Assembly: GCA_009886115.1 (NCBI GenBank)
Contig: VFJJ01000043.1
Span: 1 to 64,000, forward strand
DNA from: Actinomycetota bacterium
GTDB lineage: Bacteria; Actinomycetota; Acidimicrobiia; IMCC26256; VFJJ01
Direction: 5' to 3'
DNA: 64,000 nucleotides
The notes under the pieces: model-generated
Told to the model about the DNA's origin: nothing
Database searches by the model: none
What the model saw: only the letters and a program-made list of their open reading frames with translations
Part shown: positions 5,558 to 64,000 of the stretch, in pieces
How the letters are laid out: the number at the start of each line of letters is the position of its first letter
Numbering within the stretch: the stretch's first letter is position 1
Translations under genes and position numbers: made by a program

Positions 5558-6957
5558 TCGCCGAGCCACGCCTTCTGCGCCGCCAGCCGGTCGTGCACCG
5601 CGACGAGCTGGGCCGCGAGCGGACCGGGACCGGCGCCGCCCGGCGACGATCGGCGGCGCACCGCGGCACCGGGTTCGAGGTGGGTGAGGGCCTCGGGACC
5701 GAGCCGGGGCTCGGTCATCACCAGCTCATCGATCGGGATACCCCGTTCGAGGGACTGGCGCACGATGCTGCCGACGATCCCGTGGGCGTCGCGGAACGGG
5801 ACGCCCCGACGCACCAGATCCTCGGCCAGGTCGGTCGCTGACGACGAGGGCATGTCGGCGGCCTTGCGCATGCGCTCGACGTCGAACGTGACCGTGCTCA
5901 TCATGCCGGTCACGGCGTTGAGGGTGAGCGCCAGCGTGTCGAACGCGTCGAACAGCGGTTCCTTGTCCTCCTGCAGATCGCGGTTGTAGGCCAACGGGAG
6001 CCCCTTCAACGTGGCCAGGAAACCGGTGAGATCGCCGATGAGCCGACCGGCCTTGCCGCGGGCCAGCTCGGCGATGTCGGGGTTCTTCTTCTGCGGGAGC
6101 ATGGAGGAGCCCGTCGAGTAGGCATCGGCCAGCCGAGCGAAGCCGAACTCCTCACTGGTCCACAGCACGATCTCCTCGCCCATCCGAGAGAGGTGGATCT
6201 GGGTCAAGGCGCAGGTGAACAGCAGCTCGGCAACGAAGTCTCGGTCGGAGACGGCATCGATCGAGTTCTGGAAACGAGCGTGAAAGCCCAGATCGGCGGC
6301 AACCTTGTCGGGATCGAGGGGGAGGCTCGACCCGGCCAGCGCGCCGGCGCCCAACGGGGAGACGTCGGCCCGGTGCAGCGCATCGCCGAAGCGGTCGACA
6401 TCGCGTACGAAGGCCCAGACGTGCGCCAGGAGGTGGTGCGCGAGCAGCACGGGCTGGGCCCGCTGGAGGTGGGTGTATCCCGGGAGGTAGGCGTCGCCCA
6501 TCTCCACGGCCCGTTCCAGCAGCACGAGCTGGAGGCCATGGATGCGCCGGGCCAGGTCGCGGCCTTCGCGACGAACGAACAGTCGCAGATCGAGCGCCAC
6601 CTGGTCGTTGCGGCTACGACCGGTGTGCAACTTGGCCCCGGCCGGACCGGCCAGCTCGGTGACCCGCCGTTCGATGGCGGTGTGGATGTCCTCGTCGGTC
6701 GGCTGGAACACGAACGTCCCGGCCAGGAGCTCCTTCTCAGCCTGGGCCAGGGCCGCCATGACGAGTGATCGCTCCTCCTCGGTGAGCAGGCCCACGCTGG
6801 CCAGCATCGCCACATGGGCCCGGGAACCTTCGATGTCGTCGCCAGCGAGGCGCCGGTCGAAGGGCAGGCTCACCGTGAACGCCATCAGCTCGTCGGCCGG
6901 CGCCTCGGTGATCCGTCCGTGCCACAGGGTGCGGCTCTCGCCGGCGGTGTCGCTCAT
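5554..6957 (-). CDS. argH: Argininosuccinate lyase
   Basis: EDIH, HTGRSRNDQ, GYTHLQRAQP, GSSMLPQKKNPD. Confidence 0.97.
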   Translation of the reverse strand: MSDTAGESRTLWHGRITEAPADELMAFTVSLPFDRRLAGDDIEGSRAHVAMLASVGLLTEEERSLVMAALAQAEKELLAGTFVFQPTDEDIHTAIERRVTELAGPAGAKLHTGRSRNDQVALDLRLFVRREGRDLARRIHGLQLVLLERAVEMGDAYLPGYTHLQRAQPVLLAHHLLAHVWAFVRDVDRFGDALHRADVSPLGAGALAGSSLPLDPDKVAADLGFHARFQNSIDAVSDRDFVAELLFTCALTQIHLSRMGEEIVLWTSEEFGFARLADAYSTGSSMLPQKKNPDIAELARGKAGRLIGDLTGFLATLKGLPLAYNRDLQEDKEPLFDAFDTLALTLNAVTGMMSTVTFDVERMRKAADMPSSSATDLAEDLVRRGVPFRDAHGIVGSIVRQSLERGIPIDELVMTEPRLGPEALTHLEPGAAVRRRSSPGGAGPGPLAAQLVAVHDRLAAQKAWLGE

Positions 6958-50676: not shown

Positions 50677-51162
50677 CTACCAGGTCGTCCCGCTGGTGAC
50701 GGTCAGGGCGTGGTTCGCGGTGCAGAGCGAGGCATCGGTGGTGGAGCCGTAGAAGGGACTGGCCTCGACCCCGACGACGTCGTGGATCACGTAGCAGGTC
50801 CCGCTGGTGGCCATCACCGCGATCCCGAGCTCCTGGTCGTTCGACGTGACCCCCACGCTGACGACCTCCACGTCGTTCGACGGAGCGGCGGGGGCCAGGT
50901 AGGTGTAGGTGGGCTCGATCGTGGGCAGCGCGGCTTCGGCGTCGCCGTAGGTGGAGGCGTCGGCGTAGAGGATCCTCGCTGCGGTCAGGACGTTGCGGGC
51001 GACCGACTGCGCCTCGCGGTTGTCGGCCCGGGTTCGGGCACTCAAGAACGTGGGCACGGCGATCACGATCAACACGCCGAGCACCAGCGCGACGACGAGC
51101 AGCTCGACCAGGGTGAACCCCCGGTCGTCGCGTCGCGTCCTGCGTCGGAGAACCTGGATCAT
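50677..51162 (-). CDS. Type IV pilin-like protein
   Basis: Basic leader followed by G|FTLVELLVV...IAVPTF (class III signal peptide); C-terminal Cys pair. Confidence 0.9.
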   Translation of the reverse strand: MIQVLRRRTRRDDRGFTLVELLVVALVLGVLIVIAVPTFLSARTRADNREAQSVARNVLTAARILYADASTYGDAEAALPTIEPTYTYLAPAAPSNDVEVVSVGVTSNDQELGIAVMATSGTCYVIHDVVGVEASPFYGSTTDASLCTANHALTVTSGTTW

Positions 51163-51232
51163 CGATGCGCCCCCTCGGCCCGGCTTGCGGAGTCGCGCGG
51201 CGGTGCCGCGGCTCCCGTGTCTGTCCCAACAC

Positions 51233-51259
51233 ATCGGAACCGGACCCGTCCAGGTTGAG
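51233..51259 (-). promoter_or_regulatory. Putative FliA/WhiG-type (sigma28-like) promoter for the pilin
   Basis: Minus strand CTCA-N17-TCCGAT, about 70 nt upstream of the pilin ATG. Confidence 0.45.
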
Positions 51260-51335
51260 CGCGTTTCGCCCTGAACGGACATATCGCTCGTGCGGCAGGC
51301 GGCCGAGGGCGGGCTCGGGCGCCTCTCAGCGACCG

Positions 51336-52193
51336 CTACACCGTCATGCCGCCGTCGACGGGGATGACCGCGCCGGTGAGGCCGCTGGCCTCGGGCGAGC
51401 ACAGGTAGGCGATGGCCGAGGCGACCTCCTGGGGATCGAGGAGGCGGCCGGTGAGGTGGTGCACGGCGAAGTCGTCGACCGAGGCCAGGTCGTAGATGAC
51501 AGCCGAGGCTGCCAGCATGGGGGTGCGCATCGACCCGGGACAGACCGCATTGGCGGTCACGCCCAGCGGCCCGAGATCGCAGGCCAGGCCGCGGACGTAG
51601 CCGACCACCGCGTGCTTGGCGGCGTTGTAGGCGCCGAGCCGGGGCATGCCGGTGAGACCGGCCGCGGAGGCGACGGCGACGAACCGTCCCCGACCCGCAG
51701 GAGCCGTGGCCACGATGGCGGGGATGGCCGCCCCGGCGAGGTGGTGGACCCCGTCGACGTTGACGGCGAACAGCTCGCGCCACAGATCGGACGGGGTCTC
51801 CCAGGCTGGTGGTCCGCCGCCCATGAGCCCGGCGCAGGCGATCGCCGCGTCGAGACGCCCGAAGCGCGCGACGACGTCGGTCACGGCCCTCACCAGGGAG
51901 TGAGCCTCGCGAACGTCAGCGACCAGGGCCATCGCCGGCGACCCCGCAGCCTCGCAGGCGTCGCGCACCGCTTCCAGCTCCGCGACCGTGGCCTGTGGGT
52001 ACGGCACGGCCGGGTTGGGCGCGCAGGCGTCGACCAGGCCGACCCGCCATCCCCGGCTGGCGAGCAGTCGAGCGGTCGCGGCCCCGAGGCCGCGTGCGGC
52101 CCCGGTGACGATGGCGACCGGGGCCGCGCCGGGGCCGCCCTCGGAGCCAGCAGCGCCCCCAGAATCGGCAGCGCCCTCAGAAGGTGATGACAC
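51336..52193 (-). CDS. Mycofactocin-coupled SDR family oxidoreductase
   Basis: TGAARGLG, the insertion DACAPNPAVPYPQATVAEL typical of mft-associated SDRs, YNAAK. Start uncertain. Confidence 0.85.
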   Translation of the reverse strand: MSSPSEGAADSGGAAGSEGGPGAAPVAIVTGAARGLGAATARLLASRGWRVGLVDACAPNPAVPYPQATVAELEAVRDACEAAGSPAMALVADVREAHSLVRAVTDVVARFGRLDAAIACAGLMGGGPPAWETPSDLWRELFAVNVDGVHHLAGAAIPAIVATAPAGRGRFVAVASAAGLTGMPRLGAYNAAKHAVVGYVRGLACDLGPLGVTANAVCPGSMRTPMLAASAVIYDLASVDDFAVHHLTGRLLDPQEVASAIAYLCSPEASGLTGAVIPVDGGMTV

Positions 52194-53283
52194 CGCGGAT
52201 GTTCTTGCCGGCCAGGAGGTCGGCGTAACCCTCGTTGATCTGGTCGAGCGTGTACGTGGTGGTGATCAGCTCGTCGAGCTTGAGGAGGCCGTCTCGGTAG
52301 AGCCCCAGCAGCTTGGGGATGTCGACACGAGGGTTGCAGGATCCGAACAGCGTGCCCCTGAGCTGCTTGTTCATGAGCGTCAGATCGAGCAGGCTGAGCT
52401 GCACGTCCATCTGCATCATCGGAGCGACGGCCGTCGCCACGCAGGTGCCGCCCTTGGCCGTGAGGGCCATGCCCGGAGCGATGAGATCGCCCGTGAGCAC
52501 CCCCGGGCACAGGATCACCGAGTTCGCCATGAGACCGTACGAGAGCTGCTGGACCAGCGGCATGGCCTCCTCCATGGAGGCGACGGCGTGGGTCGCCCCG
52601 AGGCTCATGGCGGTCTCGCGCTTGAACTCGAGGGGGTCGACGGCCACCACGTACCGAGCTCCGGCCATCCGGGCGCCCTGGACCGCGTTCATGCCGATCC
52701 CGCCGCATCCGACGACGACGACCGTGTCGCCGACCGTGACCTCGGCCCGGTTGACCGCCGATCCCCAGCCGGTGGCCACGCCGCAGCTCACCAACGCGAC
52801 CTGCGGCATCGGGAGGTCGGGCTCCACCTTGACGAGCGACATCTCACTGCACACCGTGTGCTCGGAGAACGTCCCGATGGCACACATCGAGTTGAGCTCG
52901 ATCCCCTTGGCCCGGACCCGACTCGTGCCGTCGAGCATCCGACCCGAGAGCAGCATCGCTCCGGTGTCGCAGAGGTTCTGTCGACCCGTCGAGCACATCC
53001 GGCACCGGCCGCACGACGGGATGAACGAGAACGAGACGTGATCGCCCGGAGCGAGGTCGGCGACACCCGGGCCGACCTCCATCACGACGCCGGCACCCTC
53101 ATGACCGCCGATGATGTTCGGGGCGGCGGGCATGTCACCGGTGATGAGGTGCTCGTCGGAGTGGCACATCCCTGCTGCGGCCATCTTGACCAGGACCTCA
53201 CCGGTCTTGGGCCCGTCGAGATCGACGTCCTCGACCGACCACTGCTTGGCCCCGTCCCACAGCACCGCAGCACGCGTCTTCAT
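52177..53283 (-). CDS. Zn-dependent alcohol dehydrogenase (NDMA-dependent/nicotinoprotein type, mycofactocin-associated)
   Basis: GMCHSDEH, GGHEGAG, CGRCRMC...NLC, CGVATGWGSA, GKNIRG. Confidence 0.88.
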   Translation of the reverse strand: MKTRAAVLWDGAKQWSVEDVDLDGPKTGEVLVKMAAAGMCHSDEHLITGDMPAAPNIIGGHEGAGVVMEVGPGVADLAPGDHVSFSFIPSCGRCRMCSTGRQNLCDTGAMLLSGRMLDGTSRVRAKGIELNSMCAIGTFSEHTVCSEMSLVKVEPDLPMPQVALVSCGVATGWGSAVNRAEVTVGDTVVVVGCGGIGMNAVQGARMAGARYVVAVDPLEFKRETAMSLGATHAVASMEEAMPLVQQLSYGLMANSVILCPGVLTGDLIAPGMALTAKGGTCVATAVAPMMQMDVQLSLLDLTLMNKQLRGTLFGSCNPRVDIPKLLGLYRDGLLKLDELITTTYTLDQINEGYADLLAGKNIRGVITF

Positions 53284-53637
53284 GCTCTCCACCGTTTCGT
53301 CTCGCCGACTCGGCCCGATCGTTCGCCGTACGCTAGTGCCACCGTCGACGTCGATCGACCCCGCCGACCCCGGACCGGGTCCCGTGCCGCACGGCGGCCC
53401 CGCCTCGCCGGCGACCGGCGTGCGCGCCGTGCGCGCCGAGGGCGCCGACCTCCGGCGAGCCGGCGGGCGGCAACTCGCCGTCAGTGGTCCTCGGTCCCGG
53501 TCGGACGGCCCCTGCGGTTGGCGGCGAGACGGTATCCGCCCACGCTGGCGGCGCTGACGCTCACTCTCGAGATCGCTGCGACCCTGCCGGCCATCGGCTT
53601 GCTGGTCGCAGGCATGCCACCCACGGTGATCCGACCG

Positions 53638-54606
53638 TCATGCGATCAACCCCCGGAGCGCCTCGGGCACCCGCGATGGGCCGGCCAGCTCCACACAGCG
53701 TCCCCCGCCGGCCCGGGCCAGCGCCCTGGCGTCTTCAGCGTCGCCGAGGGGTGCCACCACGTGCAACTGCTCGAGTCGCCGGGCCTCGACCACGGGATCG
53801 GTGCCTGCTGTCGGACGGCCGTCCGAGAGCAAGATCACGACCTTGCGCCGCGCCGGGCTTCGTTCGAGCTGCTCACGAGCCACGCGCAGGGCCAGCGAGA
53901 GATTCGTCGTCCCGTACCCCTTGAGCGCGAGGAGGTCGTCGACGACCTCCTCGACGTCGCGGGGCACGTCCTGGGACTTGAGGACGATGGCGTCACCGGC
54001 GAAGGCGACGACCGAGTGATCGAGGGGCGCCCGCCAGGCGACGGTGGCGGCAGCGACGGCCGCGGCCGCCAGTCGGGCCCCGCCCATCGAGCCGCTGCGG
54101 TCGACCAGCAGGCACACGGCCAGGCGAGCCTTCACCCAATCGCGCGACCGGAGCTCGTCGATGGCCGGCGCTCGACCGGCGGCGCGGGCCTCGACGAGAG
54201 CGTCGAGCGAGGCGTCGATGTCGAGATCGCCACCGTCGCTCCATCGGGCCGTGCGTAGACGCTCGATGCCCCGGCGAGCGAGCGCATCACTTCGGGCGAA
54301 GCGGACGATCACCCGCCCGGCCAGCCGGCGCGCGAGCTCCTTGAGCTGGGCGTCCGTCACGTTCGCCAGGTCGGCCAGGAGGCCGAGCGCGTCGTCGGGG
54401 GACTCCTCGAACACCTGGGCGAACGCATCGACGTCGAGCTCGCCGGTCTGGGGTGAGACCCGTTCGAACTCGGGGCGCCGGGCGAGCAGCTGCCGGGCGG
54501 TGGTGCGACGACGCTCCTGGCGGACGGCGTCTGCGGCCTCGTCGCCCTCTCGGATCAGGCCCCGTCCCGCCGAGCCTCGGCCGGGAACGGGGCTGGAGCT
54601 TTTCCC
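53638..54606 (-). CDS. VWA-domain protein; reading frame most plausibly entered by -1 frameshift from the upstream AAA+ gene
   Basis: MIDAS DRSGSM, GTT, LSDG; DLDIDASLDA. The frame is open from 54618, but the first ATG/GTG/TTG is at 54414, downstream of protein-like sequence (RRPEFERVSPQTGELD). Confidence 0.85.
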   Translation of the reverse strand, partial: GKSSSPVPGRGSAGRGLIREGDEAADAVRQERRRTTARQLLARRPEFERVSPQTGELDVDAFAQVFEESPDDALGLLADLANVTDAQLKELARRLAGRVIVRFARSDALARRGIERLRTARWSDGGDLDIDASLDALVEARAAGRAPAIDELRSRDWVKARLAVCLLVDRSGSMGGARLAAAAVAAATVAWRAPLDHSVVAFAGDAIVLKSQDVPRDVEEVVDDLLALKGYGTTNLSLALRVAREQLERSPARRKVVILLSDGRPTAGTDPVVEARRLEQLHVVAPLGDAEDARALARAGGGRCVELAGPSRVPEALRGLIA

Positions 54607-55616
54607 GCGGCCCCGGCTTCACGCTCGCCGTCGTCCCGATCGTCACCGACGTCGTCGTCGTTCCCGGTGCCGTCCCCGGCGTCGGTGTCGTCGGTGTCGT
54701 CGTCGGCGGGGAAGATGCGGTCGTAGAGCTCCTCGATCACCGACTCGGGCGTGCGCGACGAGCCCTCGTACAGGCGGATCCGACCCGACAGCGCACTCAC
54801 CGCAGCGTCGAGAGCCACCGAACGCTGGCGCGGCGGCCGGGCCCGGATCAGCCCCAGCTCGAGAGCCAGGATCTCGCAGTCGACGGCCCCCCGCACCGAC
54901 GATCCGACCCGCACCTCGGGATGCTCGCGGGTGGCTCGCACCAGCTCCACGACCCGCTGGCGCCACCGCCGGCCGGACGCGCCGACATCCTCGGCCTCGG
55001 TGTACGGCGCCACGGCCCGCCCCACGATCTCGGCCTCGTCGGCCGCGCTCTGGTAGCCCATGGCGATGCGGCAGGTCCGGTCGTAGATCGCCGCCGAGAT
55101 GCGTGCCGTCCCCACCGCGTCGAACGGGTTCATGGCTGCGACCAGCCGAAACCCGGGCGAAGCGGCGATGCGACCGACCCGGGGGACGTGCAGCTCGCCC
55201 TCGCTCATCACCGTGACGAGGACGTTGAGCGTCTCCTCGGGGATCCGGTTGATCTCCTCCAGGTACAGCAGGCCACCCTCGTGGAGGGCCACGGCCAGCG
55301 GGCCGGGCACGAAGGTCGACGGGCCGTACCCCTCGCTGAGAACCCGGGCCGGGTCGTGCGCGCCGACGAGGCGGGCCGGCGTGAGCTCGGCGTTGCCCTC
55401 GACGAACTCGAAGGGCACACCGCACCGGTGGGCCACCGAGCGCAACAGCGTCGACTTCCCGGTCCCGGGTGGGCCTTCGAGCAGCACGTGACGGCTCCCG
55501 GCCAGGGCCGCCACGACGATCTCGATCTCGCGCCGGCGACCCACGACGTCGAGCGTCAGAGCGTCGAGCAGCGCCCGACCATCGGTGAACGCGGCGGGCT
55601 GGCGGGACGGGCTCAT
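54555..55616 (-). CDS. MoxR-family AAA+ ATPase with acidic C-terminal linker
   Basis: LEGPPGTGKS (Walker A), LYLEEINR (Walker B), AAMNPFD, DR, SSVRG; tail ADDDTDDTDAGDGTGNDDD. Confidence 0.92.
   Translation of the reverse strand: MSPSRQPAAFTDGRALLDALTLDVVGRRREIEIVVAALAGSRHVLLEGPPGTGKSTLLRSVAHRCGVPFEFVEGNAELTPARLVGAHDPARVLSEGYGPSTFVPGPLAVALHEGGLLYLEEINRIPEETLNVLVTVMSEGELHVPRVGRIAASPGFRLVAAMNPFDAVGTARISAAIYDRTCRIAMGYQSAADEAEIVGRAVAPYTEAEDVGASGRRWRQRVVELVRATREHPEVRVGSSVRGAVDCEILALELGLIRARPPRQRSVALDAAVSALSGRIRLYEGSSRTPESVIEELYDRIFPADDDTDDTDAGDGTGNDDDVGDDRDDGEREAGAAGKAPAPFPAEARRDGA
54559..54606 (-). promoter_or_regulatory. Putative -1 programmed ribosomal frameshift signal
   Basis: G_GGA_AAA (54606-54600) in the correct phase, 6-nt spacer, then hairpin GCCCCG-T-TCCC-G-GCCGA-GGC-TCGGC-GGGA-CGGGGC (54593-54559). 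Confidence 0.75.
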
Positions 55617-55706
55617 CGGCGCCGGACCCTACTCGCGCCGTGGCCCGTCAGCGCTTCCCGCCCGCCAGTTCGGACCGCCGACCGCCACGCGCCAGCACCG
55701 AGCCGT

Positions 55707-56417
55707 TCACCCTTCCGGGGTCGGCGCCGTGGAGGAGAAACCCGGGCGGAGGAGCTCCAGCAGTGCATCGACGAGCCCGTCGAGCAGACGCCGACCTTCG
55801 GCGGCCGAGGCGCCGGTGGCGTCACCGAGCACCCCGTCGAGGGCGTGGGGTCGCACCCCGTCGAGGTGGAGCCCGTCGAGGAGCTCGGCCAGCGGCGTCG
55901 TGTTGCCCACCGGTCGGACGGGCCGGACGGTCTCGGGAGCGAGGGCCAGCATCAGCGAGGTCTCGGTGCGACCGGCATGGGCGTCGCCACCGGGTACCGA
56001 CGCAAACCAGGCGATCGCCGGCCGTCCCTCGCGACAGAGCTGGTCGGCGGCCTGCCTGACGGTCGGGGCGTTCCCGCCGTGGCCGCACACGAACACCGTT
56101 CGGGCGAAGGTGTGCGCCGCCGATCGGCCCAGCTCCACGAGCACGGCCCGGAGCGCGTCGTGGCCGATCGAGAGGGTGCCGGGGAAGCCCTGGTGCTCGC
56201 CCGAGGCACCGAAGACCAGCGCCGGAGCCACGACCAGGCCCGAGGCCCGACCGGCTGCGGCCCGGGCCACGCCGGTGGCCACCACGGTGTCGGTGTCGAA
56301 CGGGAGGTGGGGCCCGTGCTGCTCGGTCGCCCCCAGGGGCACGAGCAACGTCTCGTGGGCATCGGGCCCCGCTCGAACCTGGCTCAGCTCGGTCCAGGTC
56401 GCGTGCGCCAGGTCCAT
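55707..56417 (-). CDS. mftE: Mycofactocin precursor peptidase (creatininase family)
   Basis: PLGATEQHGPHLP..TD, GASGEH.GFPGT, GHGGN, DAHAGRTETS, GVLGD; mft gene context. Confidence 0.88.
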   Translation of the reverse strand: MDLAHATWTELSQVRAGPDAHETLLVPLGATEQHGPHLPFDTDTVVATGVARAAAGRASGLVVAPALVFGASGEHQGFPGTLSIGHDALRAVLVELGRSAAHTFARTVFVCGHGGNAPTVRQAADQLCREGRPAIAWFASVPGGDAHAGRTETSLMLALAPETVRPVRPVGNTTPLAELLDGLHLDGVRPHALDGVLGDATGASAAEGRRLLDGLVDALLELLRPGFSSTAPTPEG

Positions 56418-56490
56418 CAGCCGACGGCCGGCGCCGAGACCGCGTCGCGACCCGCCGGGCGAGGCCTCAGCAGCACGCGACCCGAGCGGG

Positions 56491-57459
56491 TCACGGGAGG
56501 TATCCCCAGGTCCGGAGCTGTCCGACGATCTCGGCTGCGGCCTCCTCAGGTTCGAGATGCACGAGCCGAGGGGGGCTGCGATCGACGAGCGCTCCGGTGA
56601 GGGCCAGGATGCGTTCGAGCGGCGTGAGCTCGGCGGACGGCGGCGACAGCACCCGGGGACGCGGACGATAGGGGCCGCGTCGGACGACCACGGGATCGAC
56701 ACGCTCCGACACCGTCAGCCGGGCGGCGGACGCGGCCACGACGACGCCAACGGGCTGATCGCGCGCCGCCAGCACTCCGGCGAGGCTGGCCCGACGGAGC
56801 CGGACCGGTCCGCCCTCGACCGAGATCACGACCGGCGAACCGAGACGGAGTCGCTCGCGGCGGCCCCCGTCGAGGCGACGTTCGACGACTCCGGTGGTGA
56901 CGTCGATGGTCACCACACCGAGGGCCTGCCCGACGCCGAGCTCGGCCGCCAGGAACGCCGGCACCGAGGCCGAGCCCCGGTCGAGCGACGCGTTCCCGCA
57001 CACCACCAGGTGCGATCCGTCGACCACCCCGGCGAGCTGGTGGGCCACGACCGGCGACGGAGCGTCGTCCGGGAGGCCGTCGATGCGCACCGCCGCGCTG
57101 GCACCCGAGGCCAGGGCTTCACGGAGCATCGCATCGGCCGCGGCCGGACCGACGCACACCACCGTCACGGTCGAACGCTCCAGCGGCGCCACTCCGCGAC
57201 CAGCACCCTCAACAGGGCTAACGCTTGGGCTAACGCCGTCGGCAGGACCAACGCCGTCGGAGGGCGCAACCCGGTGGGCCCGGTCAGCAGCGTCGGCGGC
57301 GTCCGCGGCGTCGGCGATCCGTAGCGCCCATTCGAGTGCAGCCTCGTCGGCGGGCGACGGTCCGAGGCTGTGACGGTCGACGGTGACCGTCCCGGTGAGG
57401 GCGTCCACCTCGAACCGCCGGGCCACGAGCTTCCAGCACACCGCCAGCGCCACGCTCAT
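56491..57459 (-). CDS. Mycofactocin-associated electron transfer flavoprotein beta subunit (FixA-like)
   Basis: SPADEAALEWAL, CGNASLDRGSASVPAFLA, RRLDGGRRE, L..WGY. Confidence 0.85.
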   Translation of the reverse strand: MSVALAVCWKLVARRFEVDALTGTVTVDRHSLGPSPADEAALEWALRIADAADAADAADRAHRVAPSDGVGPADGVSPSVSPVEGAGRGVAPLERSTVTVVCVGPAAADAMLREALASGASAAVRIDGLPDDAPSPVVAHQLAGVVDGSHLVVCGNASLDRGSASVPAFLAAELGVGQALGVVTIDVTTGVVERRLDGGRRERLRLGSPVVISVEGGPVRLRRASLAGVLAARDQPVGVVVAASAARLTVSERVDPVVVRRGPYRPRPRVLSPPSAELTPLERILALTGALVDRSPPRLVHLEPEEAAAEIVGQLRTWGYLP

Positions 57460-57764
57460 GACGCGTGGAAGACGACACCGTGGCCGCCCTCGGGGTAGCT
57501 CCAGCTGATGGCCCCTTCGGTGTCGCAGACCAGGTAGCAGGTGCCGCACTCGAAGCACTGCTCGTAGTTGAACACGATGCCCCCGTCGGACGTGGGCACG
57601 AACAGGTTGGCAGGGCAGGCCGTCACGCACGCCCGCGTCGAGCATCCCCGGCACGAGTCGCCGTCGACGACGATGTGCGGGGTCGGCGAGACACGGAACT
57701 CGACGGTGCCCATCCGGTCGTCGAACGACACCCGGGGCCAGGTTCGGGACGAGTCGTTGGTCAT
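57456..57764 (-). CDS. FixX-like ferredoxin
   Basis: PHI, CRGC...CVTACPANLF, CFECGTC.LVC, W.YPEGG.GV. Confidence 0.9.
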   Translation of the reverse strand: MTNDSSRTWPRVSFDDRMGTVEFRVSPTPHIVVDGDSCRGCSTRACVTACPANLFVPTSDGGIVFNYEQCFECGTCYLVCDTEGAISWSYPEGGHGVVFHAS

Positions 57765-59107
57765 CAGCCGTAGCTCCTGATCGCTGTCCAACCGTCGCGA
57801 GCCAGATCACGCAGACGCACCCTGGATCGGCGGGCCGACTTCCACGCGAGCCGAGCGATGCCCTGCTTGGGGGCGGGGTTGCGCACCGTGAAGAGGTCCT
57901 CGACGACGTCGCACGTGAGCTGCGGATACTGGAACTGGGCTCGCCCCGACAAGAGGAACTCGGGGACCCGGCGCAGCTTCTTGTGGTCGGCGAGCACGAA
58001 GTTGGCCTCGAGTCGGGCGCGGTAGCCGGCGAGGCCTCGCGCCGCGGTCGTGTCGCCGCTGCGGATGGCCTCGACGGCGGTCGCCCCGGCGGCCAGGCCC
58101 GAGCCGATCGCGAAGTTCACACCCTCGAGCCAGACCCCGGCCGCGAGGCACAGCCCGGCGGCGTCGCCGGCCACGAGCAGACCGTCGCCGGCCAGGGTGG
58201 GGATCTGGTCGTAGCCGCCTTCGGGGATCAGGTGGGCCGAGTACTCGACGATCTCGCCGCCGGCGACAAATGGCGCGATCGAGGGGTGGGCCTTGAAGCC
58301 AGCGAGGATCTCCTCGGGGCGGTGCTTCGACGCGGCCAGGCCCGGGAGGTGCAGCACGACGCCGACGGAGATCGTGTCGAGGTTCGTGTAGAGGAAGCCG
58401 CCCCCGGGGACGTCCATCGTGCAGCCGACGACCTCGAAGTCGGCACCCTCACGGCCCGTGAGATTGAACCGCTGTTCGATGCTCTCCCGGGGCAGTCGCA
58501 GCACTTCCTTGACGCCGAGCGTGGTGTGCTCGGCCTGCTCGCTCGCCCCCGGATACAGGCCGGCGGCCTTGGCGATGAACGAGTTGACGCCGTCGCAGGC
58601 GATGACCACGCGGGCTCGTAGCGCTGAGGTCGAAGCGCCCGTGGCGGGGTCGGGCCGGTCGGTGACCACACCGACCACCCGCCCGGACGGGTCACGCACG
58701 ACATCGGTGGCCACCGTGGAGGTGACCAGGACGCTGCCCGCGGCCTCGGCCTTGGCCGCCAGCCACGCGTCGAAGTCGGGGCGCAGCGCCGTCGCGCCGT
58801 TGTACGGGGGCCCGGCCCAGGTCTGCGATCGGAAGTCGAGGCACAGGCTCTGCGTGGGAGTGAGGATCATCGTGCCGCGTCGGGTGATCCACCGCTGGAT
58901 GGGAATCTCGTCCCACCAATTGGGAATGACCTGGTCGAGGACCCGTCCGTAGATCACGCCGCCGTACATGTTCTTCGACCCGGGGAACGGGCCGCGCTCG
59001 AGCAGGGCCACCCGGAGCCCGGCCCGGGCGACGGCCAACGCAGCCGCCGATCCCGCCGGGCCGGCGCCCACCACGATCACGTCGAACGGGTCGGGGGCCG
59101 CGGTCAT
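57764..59107 (-). CDS. FixC-like ETF-quinone oxidoreductase flavoprotein
   Basis: VGAGPAG, ERG.FPGSKNMYGG, DGVNS, GGGFLYTN, YSAHLIPEGG, GDAAG. Confidence 0.9.
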   Translation of the reverse strand: MTAAPDPFDVIVVGAGPAGSAAALAVARAGLRVALLERGPFPGSKNMYGGVIYGRVLDQVIPNWWDEIPIQRWITRRGTMILTPTQSLCLDFRSQTWAGPPYNGATALRPDFDAWLAAKAEAAGSVLVTSTVATDVVRDPSGRVVGVVTDRPDPATGASTSALRARVVIACDGVNSFIAKAAGLYPGASEQAEHTTLGVKEVLRLPRESIEQRFNLTGREGADFEVVGCTMDVPGGGFLYTNLDTISVGVVLHLPGLAASKHRPEEILAGFKAHPSIAPFVAGGEIVEYSAHLIPEGGYDQIPTLAGDGLLVAGDAAGLCLAAGVWLEGVNFAIGSGLAAGATAVEAIRSGDTTAARGLAGYRARLEANFVLADHKKLRRVPEFLLSGRAQFQYPQLTCDVVEDLFTVRNPAPKQGIARLAWKSARRSRVRLRDLARDGWTAIRSYG

Positions 59108-60375
59108 GTTCCTCCAACGCTCGGGAGTGCGTCCTGGTCGACGGGCTCGGCGGGGTCGAACGGCTCGGCGGGGTCGACGGCGATGAGCCGGGCCAGCGCA
59201 TCGAGCACGGCCCGGGCGTCGCTCACGATCGCCAGGTCGGCCAGGCCCATCATGGGGCAGCTCGGATCGGTGTTCACCGAGATCACATGGTCGGGATCAC
59301 CCAGACCGGTCACGTGCTGCACGGCGCCGCTGATCCCGAAGGCAAGGTAGAGCCGGGGGTTCACGGCCACCCCCGTGGTCCCGATCTGGCGCTCGAAGGG
59401 GAGCCAGCCGGCGTCGGTGGCGACCCTGGTTCCGCCGAGCGAGGCTCCGAAGCGGGCGCCGATGGCCGCCAGCAGGTCGAAGCGCTGCGTGCTCGCCCCG
59501 TCGTCGGGGCCGGCCAAACCCTGGCCGCCGGCGACGATCCGGCGGGCCTCGGCCAGGTCGACGGTGCTCGGGTCGGCAGCCACGAGCTCCACCAGCTCGG
59601 GATCGCCGGCCCCCATTCCGACGCTCACCACGACCGACGTGACCTCGTTCGCGGAAGGTGCCGGCGCGGCCGGGCCGGAGGTCGCGCCAGGCCCGGGCGC
59701 CCCACTCACCCCGGCCGCGATGCCTCGGGAGCCGGGGACGAGCGTCGCCACCGCCGGGCCGGCGAGGCGCACGTCGGTCTCGACCCCGCCGTGGTGGGTC
59801 ACGACCGTGGCGCCGTGGAGGTCGATGCGGACCGCGCCCGCGACCAGGGGTCGATGAAGGACATGGGCCAACCGCGGCGCGAGGTCTCGGCCGTCGGCCG
59901 AGGCCGGCAGCACCACGACCGTCTCCGATGCCAGTGCCGCTGCCAGGGCCTGCGCCCACGCCGCCGGTGCGTACACGCCGAGCTCCGAGACCCGCAGCAG
60001 GCGCGCGGGGACGGCCAGGGTCGCTGCGGCCTCGACGACGCCCGAGCCCACGAGCCACACCCGTCCGCCGGCTTCGGCGACGACCTCGTCGGCCCCGAGC
60101 GGGAGCTGACCGTCACGCACGGGCACGAGCGCCAGCATCCCGGCGTCGGGATCGCCGCTGGCGACGGTCCGGAGACCGGTGTCGGGGCCGGGATGGGCGC
60201 GGGGATCGGTGCCCCCGACCGCGTCGACGGGGGCACCAGCCGCCGGGACAGCACCAACCGCCGGAGCAGCGCCAGCGGCCGGGGCCACAAAGCGGCCGTC
60301 GGGGCCCCTTCGACGAGCCGGTCGAGGCGCGCCCCGACCGGCGTCGAGTGGTTCATCGGGTCGGCGCGCGCTCAC
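59104..60375 (-). CDS. Mycofactocin-associated ETF alpha subunit (FixB-like)
   Basis: GRDLAPRLA, DLAEARRIVAGG.G, RQIGTTG, YLAFGISGAVQH. Start is either GTG 60375 (overlap) or ATG 60138. Confidence 0.88.
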   Translation of the reverse strand: MSARRPDEPLDAGRGAPRPARRRGPDGRFVAPAAGAAPAVGAVPAAGAPVDAVGGTDPRAHPGPDTGLRTVASGDPDAGMLALVPVRDGQLPLGADEVVAEAGGRVWLVGSGVVEAAATLAVPARLLRVSELGVYAPAAWAQALAAALASETVVVLPASADGRDLAPRLAHVLHRPLVAGAVRIDLHGATVVTHHGGVETDVRLAGPAVATLVPGSRGIAAGVSGAPGPGATSGPAAPAPSANEVTSVVVSVGMGAGDPELVELVAADPSTVDLAEARRIVAGGQGLAGPDDGASTQRFDLLAAIGARFGASLGGTRVATDAGWLPFERQIGTTGVAVNPRLYLAFGISGAVQHVTGLGDPDHVISVNTDPSCPMMGLADLAIVSDARAVLDALARLIAVDPAEPFDPAEPVDQDALPSVGGT

Positions 60376-62384
60376 AACCGCTCCCCCACCCGCTGCCCCT
60401 CGACGACCGCGGCGTGGATGCGGCGCGGCGCCACGCAGTCGCCCACACGCTCGACCCGGATCCCGGCGTCGCGACAGGCCCGCCAGAGACCGTCGGCGGG
60501 CGCGGCGGGAACGCACAACACCAGCCAGTCGACCTCGCGGAGCTCGGACCCGCCGGTCGGATGGTGCACGAGCTGCAAGGCCAGGCCCGGCCGGCCGTCG
60601 GCGCACGGCCCGGCACCCATCACGAGGGTGTCGGTCGTCTGGGCGATGCCCTTGGCCGACGCTCGCATCCACCACTGCTCCAGGTCGAGCGTGATCCCGA
60701 GGTCTTGGCCCACGACCATGCCCGGGGTGATCACCTCGACCGCGCAGCCCCGATCGGCGAGCAGCTCGGCGACCGACGTGGCCTGGTGGAACCCCAGCTC
60801 GTCGAACACGGCCACCCGGCCTGTCGGTGCCGCCCGTCCGGCGAGCACGTCGGTCACATCGACGACCAGCGCCCCGGGGGCTTCGGCCAGGGACGGGTCG
60901 ACCTGCGGTACCCACCAGGGCCGTTCGGGCACCGAACCCGTGGCGACCACCACGACGTCGGGCCGCAGCGCCCGCAGCGAGTCGACCGAGGCCTCCTCGC
61001 CGTAGCGCATCGTCACGCCGGCCCGGCGGCACTCGGTGACCTGGTTGCGAATCACGTCGCCGAGCTCGGCCCGGTTGGCCACCGTGGCCGCCAGACGGAC
61101 CTGCCCGCCCGGCACCGGATCGCGCTCGATGACCGTCACGCGATGACCCCGATTCGCGGCGGCGATGGCGGCCTGCATCCCGGCCGGGCCCGCCCCGACC
61201 ACGACCACCCGTTGCGGACGGTCGACCAGGGCCACCGCCGAGGCCCACCGGCCCCGCTCGGCCTCGCGGCCCGTGCGCGGGTTCTCGATGCAGCCCAGCC
61301 AGCGGTTGAGACCCATCCGCCCGACGCACTCCTGGTTGCACGACAGGCACAGGCGCGTGTCGTCGACATGACCGGAACGGGCCTTGGCCACGAAGTCGGC
61401 GTCGGCGATCTGGCCGCGCACCACCCCGACGAGGTCGCAGTGCCCGGCATCGAGGGCCCGCTCGGCCTGCAGCGGGTCCTTGAACCGACCGACGCCGACC
61501 ACCGGCAACGAGATCGCCTTGCGAATCGCGCTCGGGATGAACATGGCGTATCCGGGCGGCACGTGCATCGACGCCTCGATCATGTACAGGGTCGCGGTGG
61601 CGACGCCGATCGAGGTGTTGACGTAGTCGACCTGCCCGGTGGCTTCGACCATCCGGGCCACCTCGACAGCATCGTCGATGGTCGTGCCGTGCTCGATCAG
61701 CTCGTCGCCGCACAGGCGCACGCCGAGCGCCAGGTCGCGCCCGATCGTCTCCCTGACTGCGGCCACGATCTCGAGCAGCAACCGAGCCCGCCGCGCCAAC
61801 GTGCCGCCGTAGTCGTCGGTCCGGTGGTTCGTGGCGAGAGACAGGAAGCCCCGCACGATCGACGAGTGCGAGCATTGGAGCTCGATGCCGTCGAAGCCGC
61901 CCTGGCGGCAGTGCCCGGCCACGAGGGCGTATCCGGCCACGATCTCGGCGATCTCGCGGACCTCGAGCTCCTTGGGCACCTCCCGGAACAGCGGGTCGGG
62001 CACGCTCGAGGGGGCCCACACCGGCAAGCGGGAGTACATCGACGATGCCTGCCCGCCGTTGTGGTTGATCTGGGCGAAGATCGGCGTGCCGTGGGCGTGC
62101 ACGGCGTCGGTGATCTGCCGGTACCCGGGGATCACCGACGGCGAGAACCCGTGGATGAGCTTCTCGTAGGGCCAGTCGGTCGGGTGCACCGAGTGCTCCT
62201 CGGTGATGATCAGCCCCGCACCCCCCGCGGCCCGGGCTTCGTAGTACGCAGCGTGCTGATCGGTCGCGTGGCCGTCCTCGGCGTAGTTCGTGAGGTGGGC
62301 GCTGAACACGACCCGGTTCTCGACGGTGACCGGTCCGAGCCGCAGCGGGCTGAACAAGCGGGGATAGCGCGCGACGGTGGGCAT
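60372..62384 (-). CDS. Mycofactocin-system FadH/OYE family oxidoreductase 2
   Basis: NRVVFSAHLTNYA, TEEHSVHPTDWPYEK, QCSHSS, CLSCNQEC (Fe-S), GAGPAG. Confidence 0.9.
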   Translation of the reverse strand: MPTVARYPRLFSPLRLGPVTVENRVVFSAHLTNYAEDGHATDQHAAYYEARAAGGAGLIITEEHSVHPTDWPYEKLIHGFSPSVIPGYRQITDAVHAHGTPIFAQINHNGGQASSMYSRLPVWAPSSVPDPLFREVPKELEVREIAEIVAGYALVAGHCRQGGFDGIELQCSHSSIVRGFLSLATNHRTDDYGGTLARRARLLLEIVAAVRETIGRDLALGVRLCGDELIEHGTTIDDAVEVARMVEATGQVDYVNTSIGVATATLYMIEASMHVPPGYAMFIPSAIRKAISLPVVGVGRFKDPLQAERALDAGHCDLVGVVRGQIADADFVAKARSGHVDDTRLCLSCNQECVGRMGLNRWLGCIENPRTGREAERGRWASAVALVDRPQRVVVVGAGPAGMQAAIAAANRGHRVTVIERDPVPGGQVRLAATVANRAELGDVIRNQVTECRRAGVTMRYGEEASVDSLRALRPDVVVVATGSVPERPWWVPQVDPSLAEAPGALVVDVTDVLAGRAAPTGRVAVFDELGFHQATSVAELLADRGCAVEVITPGMVVGQDLGITLDLEQWWMRASAKGIAQTTDTLVMGAGPCADGRPGLALQLVHHPTGGSELREVDWLVLCVPAAPADGLWRACRDAGIRVERVGDCVAPRRIHAAVVEGQRVGERL

Positions 62385-62387
62385 CGG

Positions 62388-64000
62388 TCAGGCCCCCGGA
62401 CCGTCGAGCGCCAGCGCCGCCCGTCGACCTTCGAGGATGGCCTCGTGGATGGTGCGCGGGGCGACGGCGTCGCCGGCGCGGGGATGGCGCTCGCCGGTGG
62501 CGCGCCACAGGGCGTCGTCGGGCAGGAGCGTGCCGCAATCGACGAGCGCCGCGCAGGCGATGACCGTGGTGAGGCCCGTGTACCGCTCCTCGACGACGAC
62601 CCCGGTCGTACCGAGGCTCCGCAGCACCGATCGCTTCACGAGCGCGACGCCCGCTTGGAGCAGCCGGGTGTTGGCTGGGGCCAGGTCGCCGGTGAGCGAG
62701 AGCTGGGTGCCGACGGTGAAGTCGGGGCAGACCAGCGTGACCTGCCGGCCCCGCGATGCCAGGAGCTCGGCGATCGAGACGGCGACGGGTCCTCCGACGG
62801 GGTCCCAGACCACGACCGGGCCCTCCGGCAACGCCGCGTCTAGACCCCGGACGGTGCCGGTGGGCGACCGGCGCTCGGTGGCCAGCAGGTCGGATGCGCT
62901 CCACACCACGACGCCGCTCGACCCGCTCGACGATGCCCCGCCCGACCCGCGCGCGGGGGCCCCGCCGGTCGACGGCGGCGAGGTACCGGCGTAGGGCCGC
63001 AGCCCTGGACGGGCGCCGGTGCACAGCACGACGGCGTGGTCGCCGGCGATGCGTTCGACGAGCCCCGGTTCGATCTCGCTGCTGGTCTCGATGGTGACCC
63101 CGAGGCGGCGGCACTCGGCTTCGAGCCAGTCGGCGATGAGCGCCAGCCTCGACCGACCCGAGCCCGCCGCGGCCGTCCGCACCGATCCGCCGAGCCCGCT
63201 CGACCGCTCGACGAGGCGCACCCGGTGTCCTCGGGCTGCGGCGACCCGGGCGCACTCCAGGCCGGCGACACCCGCCCCGACAACGAGCACGTCGCGTGGC
63301 GCGCCGGCTGTCCGTCCGGTTCCTTCACCGATGTCGACGCCGATGTCGACGCCGGCGCAGGGATCGGGGTCGTCGAGCTCGTGGCCCGACCGGGGCTCGC
63401 CGACACAGCTGACGATGGGGTTGCGGCCGTCGCGCACCTGGCACTTCTGGTTGCAGAGCAGGCACGGACGCACGCGGTCGGCGTGGCCGGCGGCGACCTT
63501 CGCACCCAGGTCGGGGTCGGCGATCTGGGCCCTGGTCATCTCGACGGCGTCGGCCCGGGCCGGATCGTCGAAGCCGCCGAGCGCCCACTCGGCCTGGCCC
63601 CACTCGACGATCGAGCCCTGGGCCACGACCGCGACGCCCGGTCGGACAGCCGTGACGGCTTCTCGGATCTGCGCCACGAGACCGAGGTTGAATCCGGGCT
63701 CGGTGTGGCCGTCGGGCCGCGTGGCGCCCGTCGAGAAGATCGAGCCCCGCACCACGGTGATGGCATCGACGGTCTCGGCCAGCGCGGCGGCGACCAGGGC
63801 ACCCACGTCGGCGACGATGCCAGCCCAGGGGGCGAGCTCGTCGCACGAGAGCCGGATGGCCAGAACGGCGTCGGGGCCGATCGCATCACGAACAGCGGCC
63901 AGCACGCGCTGGGCGAATCGCAGGCGGAGGCCGTCGTCATGGCCGCCGTCGGACCCCGTCCACTCGTCGCTGCGCTGGTTCGTGAGCCCGGAGAGGAACT
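62388..64000 (-). CDS. Mycofactocin-system FadH/OYE family oxidoreductase 1 (5' end beyond window)
   Basis: FLSGLTNQRSDEW, DELAPWAG, CLLCNQKC.VRD.RNP, GAGVAGLE, AGDAVAPRT; frame open to the window edge. Confidence 0.88.
   Translation of the reverse strand, partial: FLSGLTNQRSDEWTGSDGGHDDGLRLRFAQRVLAAVRDAIGPDAVLAIRLSCDELAPWAGIVADVGALVAAALAETVDAITVVRGSIFSTGATRPDGHTEPGFNLGLVAQIREAVTAVRPGVAVVAQGSIVEWGQAEWALGGFDDPARADAVEMTRAQIADPDLGAKVAAGHADRVRPCLLCNQKCQVRDGRNPIVSCVGEPRSGHELDDPDPCAGVDIGVDIGEGTGRTAGAPRDVLVVGAGVAGLECARVAAARGHRVRLVERSSGLGGSVRTAAAGSGRSRLALIADWLEAECRRLGVTIETSSEIEPGLVERIAGDHAVVLCTGARPGLRPYAGTSPPSTGGAPARGSGGASSSGSSGVVVWSASDLLATERRSPTGTVRGLDAALPEGPVVVWDPVGGPVAVSIAELLASRGRQVTLVCPDFTVGTQLSLTGDLAPANTRLLQAGVALVKRSVLRSLGTTGVVVEERYTGLTTVIACAALVDCGTLLPDDALWRATGERHPRAGDAVAPRTIHEAILEGRRAALALDGPGA

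Follow-up and report, generated by a model that had tools for sequence, protein, structure and literature searches.

The DNA analysed here is a stretch of 64,000 nucleotides from an Actinomycetota bacterium of the Acidimicrobiia (GCA_009886115.1, contig VFJJ01000043.1, positions 1 to 64,000), referred to below as the window. It carries two adjoining reading frames, one for an AAA+ ATPase and one for a VWA domain, and between them a cassette that has the appearance of a programmed -1 ribosomal frameshift site. The features are listed in Table 1. All window coordinates, in the table and in the text, are positions of the 64-kb stretch, and the cassette lies on the minus strand.

Table 1. Features of the ATPase/VWA locus and of the adjoining dehydrogenase gene.
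Feature	Position	Strand	Basis
AAA+ ATPase (AAA_5 / MoxR class), 353 aa, with acidic C-terminal linker	54555..55616	-	0-frame open reading frame
Slippery heptamer G_GGA_AAA	54600..54606	-	in phase with the ATPase frame
6-nt spacer from heptamer to stem	54594..54599	-	sequence and fold
GC-rich hairpin, 35 nt, 15 bp, presumed stimulator of the shift	54559..54593	-	predicted fold
0-frame stop TGA closing the 353-aa ATPase	54555..54557	-	listing of open reading frames
TGA closing the -1 frame, four codons 5' of the heptamer	54619..54621	-	translation
-1 frame: Pro/Gly/Arg linker, helical N-terminal block, VWA domain with MIDAS motif	53638..54606	-	translation, Pfam
NDMA-dependent (mycofactocin-system) Zn alcohol dehydrogenase	52177..53292	-	TIGR03989, 548 bits (cut-off 440)

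The ATPase frame reads ...GCG GGA AAA GCT... at the site, which places a heptamer of the X_XXY_YYZ type in phase. The hairpin that follows contains two single-base bulges, and its 3' end is 1 nt short of the ATPase TGA, which is itself reached 14 sense codons past the heptamer. The -1 frame is open from 54618 down to a TGA at 53640-53638, the overlap of the ATPase and VWA frames is 64 nt, and the first ATG, GTG or TTG of the -1 frame is GTG 54414, at residue 68. Upstream of the slip site the ATPase open reading frame has an acidic linker. The predicted products are a short protein of 353 aa and a long one of 659 aa (339 + 320). The heptamer, the hairpin, the closure of the -1 frame, the missing start, the acidic linker and the product sizes had all been read from the letters in the original prediction, and each of them is present where it had been placed.

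GGGAAAA occurs once in the window when both strands are counted, at the slip site, and about 0.94 occurrences are expected window-wide. The improbable part is its placement in the overlap, on the right strand and in the right phase, for which our own arithmetic gives a chance of about 1.5e-4 in 64 nt. The 40 nt following the spacer have a folding energy of -28.3 kcal/mol, compared with -14.0 ± 3.9 kcal/mol in control windows taken from both genes, and none of the 207 control windows is as stable. An Rfam scan of 54450-54700 returned just two sub-threshold microRNA matches, and a promoter and terminator scan of 51000-57000 found none between the ATPase and VWA frames. A search for RNA sequencing runs containing the locus returned none.

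The two protein halves have been further analysed. The ATPase passes the Pfam cut-offs for AAA_5 (94.2 bits, cut-off 22), AAA_3 (47.6 bits) and bpMoxR (34.9 bits), and also that for Mg_chelatase (47.1 bits), although this match is weaker than the one to AAA_5. The Walker A motif GPPGTGKS is invariant in the alignment. The nearest sequences of solved structure are the AAA modules of Midasin (5e-33), followed by NorQ (2.5e-13), CbbQ (1.4e-9), CobS (6e-7) and BchI (4e-6). The models for ChlI and ChlD are far under their cut-offs (TIGR02031, 35.8 bits against 499.6; TIGR02030, 26.7 against 467), as is TIGR02442, with 46.8 and 37.6 bits against 779. A 641-position model named 'putative cobaltochelatase' matches both halves weakly (positions 86-291 and 411-601), again far under cut-off, and no NCBIfam model reaches its cut-off for either the ATPase or the VWA half. 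The ATPase, described as MoxR-type in the original prediction, is more exactly of the AAA_5 / NorQ / CbbQ / Midasin kind.

The -1 frame passes the Pfam cut-offs for VWA_CoxE, VWA_2 and VWA. The residues of its metal ion-dependent adhesion site (MIDAS; DxSxS...T...D), D172, S174, S176, T237 and D265, are invariant across 28 sequences. The structure predicted for it, from a model built on the VWA alignment, has a mean pLDDT (predicted local distance difference test score) of 91.5. Values are 58-67 in the linker (residues 1-20) and 88-97 in residues 21-70, where the N-terminal block is modelled with a strand at 21-23 and helices at 25-35, 41-44 and 48-53. A start at GTG 54414 would remove these structured and conserved elements. 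Foldseek places NorD from the NorQD complexes first for the VWA model (E = 5.3e-11), and the MIDAS domains of Rea1/Midasin match too. Taken together, the sequence matches and the structural model suggest that the two halves are closer to NorQ/NorD and Midasin than to ChlI/ChlD.

The ATPase/VWA pair is rare in the order to which the window belongs, where it occurs in two of 61 genomes, namely the window's own and a sister genome of the same genus (G001), in which the layout is identical and the proteins are 94% identical. It is found more widely outside. The -1-frame protein was compared with 1.84 billion representatives, giving 1,534 matches with E <= 0.001. Among the best 150 of these, which were inspected, some are split VWA proteins of around 300 aa, and 14 are natural fusions of 608-668 aa in which the match falls in the C-terminal half. 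In one of the matches, P0015, the alignment already starts at residue 2 of the -1 frame, and the linker of this protein is therefore homologous to the overlap as read in -1. For a comparison at the DNA level, a scan with the ATPase alignment, using one genome per species, found 351 relatives, of which the best 80 were kept. They were picked by ATPase similarity, so that none was selected for the frameshift feature. The total came to 84 loci; three end before the VWA part, leaving 81 with both halves for analysis (77 from the best 80, together with the window, G001 and two paralogues). These relatives span Acidimicrobiia, Pseudonocardiaceae, Geodermatophilaceae, Nocardioidaceae and other groups, and include cultured isolates.

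A script placed the VWA frame at -1 relative to the ATPase in 62 of the 81 loci, fused with it in 13, in frame behind a stop codon in four and at +1 in two. A perfect X_XXY_YYZ heptamer is found in phase in the junction zone of 56 of the 62 loci with the -1 layout, and in 42 of them it is GGGAAAA. The same genes provide a control: GGGAAAA is in phase at one of 15,863 positions in the ATPase core and at none of 15,710 in the VWA part. The other heptamers are C_CCG_GGG and G_GGG_GGA (both in Nocardioides and its allies), T_TTT_TTC (in four Pseudonocardiaceae), A_AAA_AAA and C_CCA_AAA; a run of seven A's at the junction is present only in L029. In the 42 loci with GGGAAAA the 0-frame stop comes one sense codon past the heptamer in 10 and after 4-21 codons in 32.

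A perfect GC-rich stem of at least 5 bp starts 4-9 nt past the heptamer in 50 of the 56 loci, whereas the same definition is satisfied at 5,629 of 32,394 control positions (17.4%). The arms vary (GCCCC/GGGGC, GCCGC/GCGGC, CGCCTCC/GGAGGCG, for example), which shows that the structure has been kept and the sequence has not. The mean minimum free energy past the heptamer in the 56 loci is -18.2 kcal/mol, compared with -13.0 kcal/mol in control windows, and in 18 of them it is within the lowest 5% for the locus. RNAalifold, run on a gapless alignment of 29 cassettes, gave only three pairs, one of them with four compensatory changes. The stems lie in shifted registers, and the stem count for each locus was used instead. 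The conserved -1 overlap, the heptamer of GGGAAA(A) type and the hairpin that the original prediction had expected among relatives are thus all found, the last as a stem of varying sequence and fixed spacing.

The same prediction had raised the prospect of orthologues fused in frame, and these exist. Two of the 13 loci that the script called fused (L026 and L048) have in reality the -1 layout with an extra frame break upstream, leaving 11 truly fused genes. Eight of the 11 retain GGGAAAA in phase. In these eight it is the -1 frame that is closed, after one sense codon in six (GKS or GKR and then a stop) and after 5-7 codons in the other two; a -1 stop as close as this occurs at 2.75% of 7,890 control positions, where the median distance is 63 codons. 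The fused and -1 layouts differ by one base, just past the heptamer. In the fused genes normal reading would give the fusion and a slip the short ATPase, so that either layout yields one short and one long product. In a quick tree the eight genes group in a single clade (SH-aLRT 99), which also contains L053, L060 and L044, the last on a long branch, and when the tree is rooted at its midpoint GGGAAAA is found on both sides of the root, which is the deepest split. Of all the observations, the retention of the heptamer in the fused as well as in the -1 layout argues most strongly that both products have been selected.

The start codons of the VWA frame were examined in the 56 loci. In 18 of them the tblastn match stops short of the N-terminal block and the start could not be evaluated. 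Among the remaining 38, no ATG, GTG or TTG lies between the heptamer and the conserved N-terminal block in 31, and in those 31 the first such codon is at least 10 codons inside the block. At the codon overlapping the ATPase stop the window has CTG and L005, L008 and L017 have CTA, and a CTA at the homologous codon weighs against the reading of CTG 54558 as a start, one of the two alternatives that had been set against frameshifting from the outset.

The other was initiation at GTG 54414, and here the substitutions between the window and G001 are informative. Nine of them lie between the ATPase stop and GTG 54414: eight are at third positions of the VWA frame and one is a synonymous first-position change; seven of the nine are synonymous and two exchange D and E in the VWA frame. 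Within the overlap two of the three changes are synonymous solely in the VWA frame. All these numbers are small. On the 5' side of the heptamer the changes follow the ATPase frame, and the -1 frame of G001 even has stops there. The pattern suggests purifying selection in both frames, including the part of the VWA frame upstream of GTG 54414.

On the basis of these observations we hypothesise that the ATPase and VWA frames form one transcription unit with a programmed -1 frameshift cassette, and that a ribosomal shift at this site very probably yields both the 353-aa ATPase and the 659-aa ATPase-VWA fusion. The majority of ribosomes would stop at TGA 54557-54555 and release the ATPase. A minority would stall at the hairpin with GGA in the P site and AAA in the A site, and tandem slippage would then allow both tRNAs to re-pair one base back, onto GGG and AAA. 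The slipped ribosomes would read the -1 frame to 53638, producing the ATPase-linker-VWA fusion. The efficiency of the slip at G_GGA_AAA would set the cellular ratio of the short to the long AAA+ subunit.

Several observations weigh against this proposal. The loci are related to one another, so that the counts given above, and a Wilcoxon p value from the folding-energy comparison, overstate their independence. Among the 62 loci with the -1 layout, six have no perfect heptamer; these keep a shorter run of A or G at the homologous place, where one tRNA could still slip. In 19 of the 56 loci the folding energy downstream of the heptamer is above the 25th percentile for that locus, and a 73-nt stretch in the window has no greater stability than dinucleotide-shuffled versions of itself (z = -0.55). 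The latter control is uninformative, since a high G+C content alone yields strong folds, and real control windows were used for this reason. A selection test pooled over three close pairs counted four changes synonymous only in the VWA frame, one synonymous only in the ATPase frame and eight synonymous in neither, which is a weak result. The 0-frame peptide past the heptamer (GKA.AP.GAT) also looks conserved, and the conservation of the overlap may stem from the hairpin and not from either protein frame. The heptamer is wholly absent from three of the fused genes (L051, L053 and L063). Six loci with extra frame breaks had to be read again by eye. Lastly, in seven of the 38 loci the VWA frame has a canonical start no later than the N-terminal block, and gene callers assign GTG or ATG starts there to the proteins P0002, P0004 and P0005. 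Independent initiation is therefore possible in some relatives, where it could coexist with a shift.

One alternative is an explanation without any frameshift, in which the VWA protein is made alone, by termination-reinitiation or from a non-canonical start (CTG 54558 or ATC 54555), and the heptamer is incidental. A 4-nt overlap of stop and start of the form NTGA also produces a -1 relation, and L068 has a true ATGA overlap. In the split proteins P0002, P0004 and P0005 the predicted start falls opposite residues 20-23 of the -1 frame, which corresponds to CTG 54558, and the canonical starts of the seven loci are at that place. We nevertheless consider this explanation unlikely. The CTA found at the homologous codon in L005, L008 and L017 is no known start, 31 of the 38 loci have no canonical start there, and two of the three overlap changes relative to G001, which are synonymous only in the VWA frame, lie upstream of CTG 54558. 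Moreover, independent initiation leaves unexplained why GGGAAAA is in phase in 42 of the 62 loci when about one control position in 16,000 has it, why a correctly spaced stem follows, and why eight of 11 fused genes have a heptamer with a -1 stop immediately behind it. A different proposal accepts the shift as real but treats it as the rescue of an old indel, with the fusion as the sole functional product and the 353-aa ATPase as a by-product. Fused relatives are difficult to reconcile with it: they need no rescue, yet they keep the heptamer, with the -1 stop one codon later in six of eight, and a heptamer with a -1 stop nearby in a fused gene is sensible only if the short form is selected. 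In the quick tree GGGAAAA is also present on either side of the deepest split. Although PMC5009743 discusses frameshifting as a means of rescuing indels, and the fused genes without any heptamer (L051, L053, L063) are in favour of this proposal, it appears very unlikely here.

The extra base could alternatively be introduced during transcription, if RNA polymerase slipped on the G3A4 run and made some mRNAs one base longer. Polymerase slippage normally needs much longer runs, and the run here is just four A's after three G's. It also needs no phase, whereas the exact X_XXY_YYZ phasing and the stem at 4-9 nt fit what a ribosomal -1 shift requires, and the alternative heptamers C_CCG_GGG, T_TTT_TTC and C_CCA_AAA preserve the pattern for two tRNAs. 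Polymerase slippage is a recognised alternative at the runs of 7-11 A in chlD (PMC3711429), and the relative L029 has its A7; for the window we regard it as highly improbable. There is finally the question of an assembly or sequencing indel, or of a decaying pseudogene. The genome is a draft of 224 contigs, and several relatives that are metagenome-assembled genomes from long reads do have extra frame breaks. These breaks, in the ATPase or the linker, are found in L026, L037, L042, L048, L056 and L060, where they misled the automatic frame classes; they are probably homopolymer indel errors, since most of the carriers are metagenome-assembled genomes with names suggesting long-read assembly. 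At the site in the window, by contrast, Logan contigs from three studies (X2 record 3, 54350-54689; X5 record 6, 54350-54850; X6 record 11, 54403-54674) agree with no differences and no gaps. The indel of which the original prediction had warned is not seen in them, and an assembly indel is excluded as far as contigs can show. The same layout is present in G001, in cultured isolates and in many short-read assemblies, and purifying selection, to judge from the substitutions, acts on both frames. An artefact or a pseudogene can hardly be the explanation.

The closest known system is chlD, as the original prediction had correctly pointed out. We have compared it with the window using three publications (Antonov et al. 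2013, PMC3711429; Atkins et al. 2016, PMC5009743; Kuznetsov et al. 2022, PMC9227772). Frameshifting at A-rich sites joins a ChlI-like part to a VWA part in Pseudomonas, Burkholderia, Delftia, Herpetosiphon and methanogens, with a reporter efficiency of 10-63% (PMC3711429), and according to PMC9227772 genes of this type (fs-chlD) are present in many phyla, actinobacteria among them. In both systems one gene gives AAA+-only and AAA+-linker-VWA subunits through a -1 shift in the linker, fused homologues exist, and a stem lies downstream of the site. The architecture of AAA+ module, acidic or Pro-rich linker and VWA domain is also found in the window, and one cassette tested in PMC3711429 consists of a heptamer, GCC TGA and a GC-rich stretch, like the 10 loci here in which the stop is one codon away. 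The differences are as follows. The chlD site is a run of A's (A_AAA_AAR, 7-11 A, AT-rich), whereas here it is G_GGA_AAA, with C_CCG_GGG or T_TTT_TTC on side branches. The reverse layout, with the fusion in the 0 frame and stops in the -1 frame, is not mentioned in the parts of these publications that were consulted. The present proteins fail the ChlI/ChlD family models, and their conserved neighbour is an alcohol dehydrogenase, whereas chlD has cobN/chlH as a partner (genes that were not searched for here). The chlD slip sites and the present ones may be homologous or may be convergent.

Three other systems are relevant. In the AAA+ gene dnaX of E. coli a -1 shift gives the tau and gamma proteins, and the long and short forms join one ring-shaped complex. 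Its heptamer A_AAA_AAG ranks first among -1 heptamers in PMC3711429 supplement 2. The eight fused relatives would resemble dnaX in shifting into an early stop, whereas the shift in the window would extend the protein; the protein family, the heptamer and the role in the cell are also different. NorQ-NorD, CbbQ-CbbO and CoxD-CoxE each combine a MoxR-class AAA+ protein with a VWA partner, from separate genes with their own starts. The present ATPase matches NorQ and CbbQ, the VWA model is most similar to NorD, and in the present locus, too, the pair adjoins the enzyme it is presumed to serve. The NorQD entries comprise six NorQ chains with NorD as chain G, so that the VWA partner is sub-stoichiometric, a ratio that a frameshift would set. 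The present VWA part differs in having no start and in being tethered to an ATPase subunit by predicted recoding, and the presumed client is a nicotinoprotein alcohol dehydrogenase. The tail chaperone genes G/GT of phage lambda have the shift site G_GGA_AAG, which is a near-identical heptamer used by a bacterial ribosome, with slippage of two tRNAs on Gly and Lys codons; this is a phage gene without AAA+ or VWA proteins, and the last base of the heptamer is different.

A literature search, which did not extend to all work on actinobacterial fs-chlD, found no report of frameshifting in the present AAA_5/VWA family. Frameshifting between AAA+ and VWA modules is known from chlD; the features of the new variant are the G/A heptamer, a family outside ChlI/ChlD, the dehydrogenase neighbour and the clade with the reverse layout. 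To our knowledge, only a handful of bacterial genes that do not belong to mobile elements, such as dnaX, prfB, copA and chlD, are known for conserved frameshifting on the chromosome. The present family would add a large and testable one, in which the heptamer is of GC type and the stem is simple, and of which cultured carriers exist, among them Blastococcus jejuensis JCM 15614, Nocardioides ginsengisoli JCM 16930 and Pseudonocardia spirodelae DW16-2. The use of one site in opposite directions by sister clades, as proposed here, speaks for selection on the ratio of short to long AAA+ protein. There is also a consequence for annotation. Gene calls for the VWA part are routinely fragments or begin at an incorrect internal start; the proper annotation of the fusion would be as a product of ribosomal slippage.

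The neighbourhood of the locus gives an indication of function. In addition to the dehydrogenase in Table 1, the same strand of the window carries other genes of the mycofactocin system: MftE (253.5 bits, cut-off 172), mycofactocin-associated EtfB and EtfA, FixC, FixX and a mycofactocin-coupled short-chain dehydrogenase/reductase. A homologue of the alcohol dehydrogenase (47-62% identity) is present in 57 of the 81 loci, mostly directly upstream of the ATPase and on the same strand. MftE adjoins the pair only in the window and the sister genome, and EtfB is likewise nearly absent from the relatives, but these counts are unreliable because the MftE and EtfB queries were mis-cut; those for the alcohol dehydrogenase and the short-chain dehydrogenase/reductase are sound. 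The mycofactocin context given in the original prediction therefore applies to the region in which the window lies, and the partner conserved among relatives is the NDMA-type alcohol dehydrogenase, not the genes of mycofactocin synthesis. Judged by synteny only, this dehydrogenase is most likely the client of the ATPase/VWA machine, which becomes a candidate, so far uncharacterised, for an accessory factor of NDMA-/mycofactocin-dependent alcohol dehydrogenases.

By analogy with NorQD and CbbQO, both forms may build a ring that bears a tethered VWA adaptor, and such a ring may mature or reactivate the adjoining dehydrogenase, a client assigned by synteny. These elements can be combined into a fuller and decidedly tentative picture, which we think is more probably wrong in some part than right as a whole. 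About five short ATPases would be made per fusion, giving a hexamer with one covalently tethered VWA adaptor, which would mature or reactivate the nicotinoprotein alcohol dehydrogenases of the mycofactocin system, for example by loading a metal or cofactor. The need for two products would be old, and would have been met in three ways in one family: a shift that extends the protein, as in the window; a shift that terminates it, as in the fused clade with its one base different; and possibly read-through of a TGA in a paralogue from the same genome.

Some further features of the window were noted. At 56491-59107 (minus strand), just upstream of mftE, genes resembling FixC and FixX lie between the mycofactocin-associated EtfA and EtfB, an arrangement suggestive of a module for electron transfer linked to the mycofactocin system. 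The window is rich in G+C and contains very long open frames on the wrong strand or in the wrong frame. Only the last 320 or so residues of a 1,383-aa frame at 59104-63255 (minus strand) match EtfA, and a 756-aa frame at 51988-54258 (plus strand) runs antisense over the VWA and dehydrogenase genes. Spurious long frames being common here, an open frame alone is no evidence.

The paralogue is a second AAA_5/VWA pair in the same genome (L004, G000:C53:5334-9053, 259-2226), with a VWA part that is 37% identical. Its ATPase ends at a TGA (1225-1227) that shares the frame of the VWA part, and directly after this TGA the frame is open again. In the 111 nt past this TGA there are 13 substitutions relative to the G001 counterpart (L003), nine of them at third positions, and the first candidate start in L004, TTG 1336, is CTG in L003. 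The stretch past the TGA thus looks translated, and read-through of the TGA is a candidate explanation. Around L004 there are genes for an ABC transporter, a P450 and unknown proteins, but none for an alcohol dehydrogenase. Its sister clade in the Pseudonocardiaceae (L069, L072, L081 and L082) has a second, different slippery site for the family, T_TTT_TTC, in phase at a conserved ...ENHFF... about 43 nt before the ATPase stop, followed after 6-7 nt by a stem of 6-7 bp and with the VWA frame at -1.

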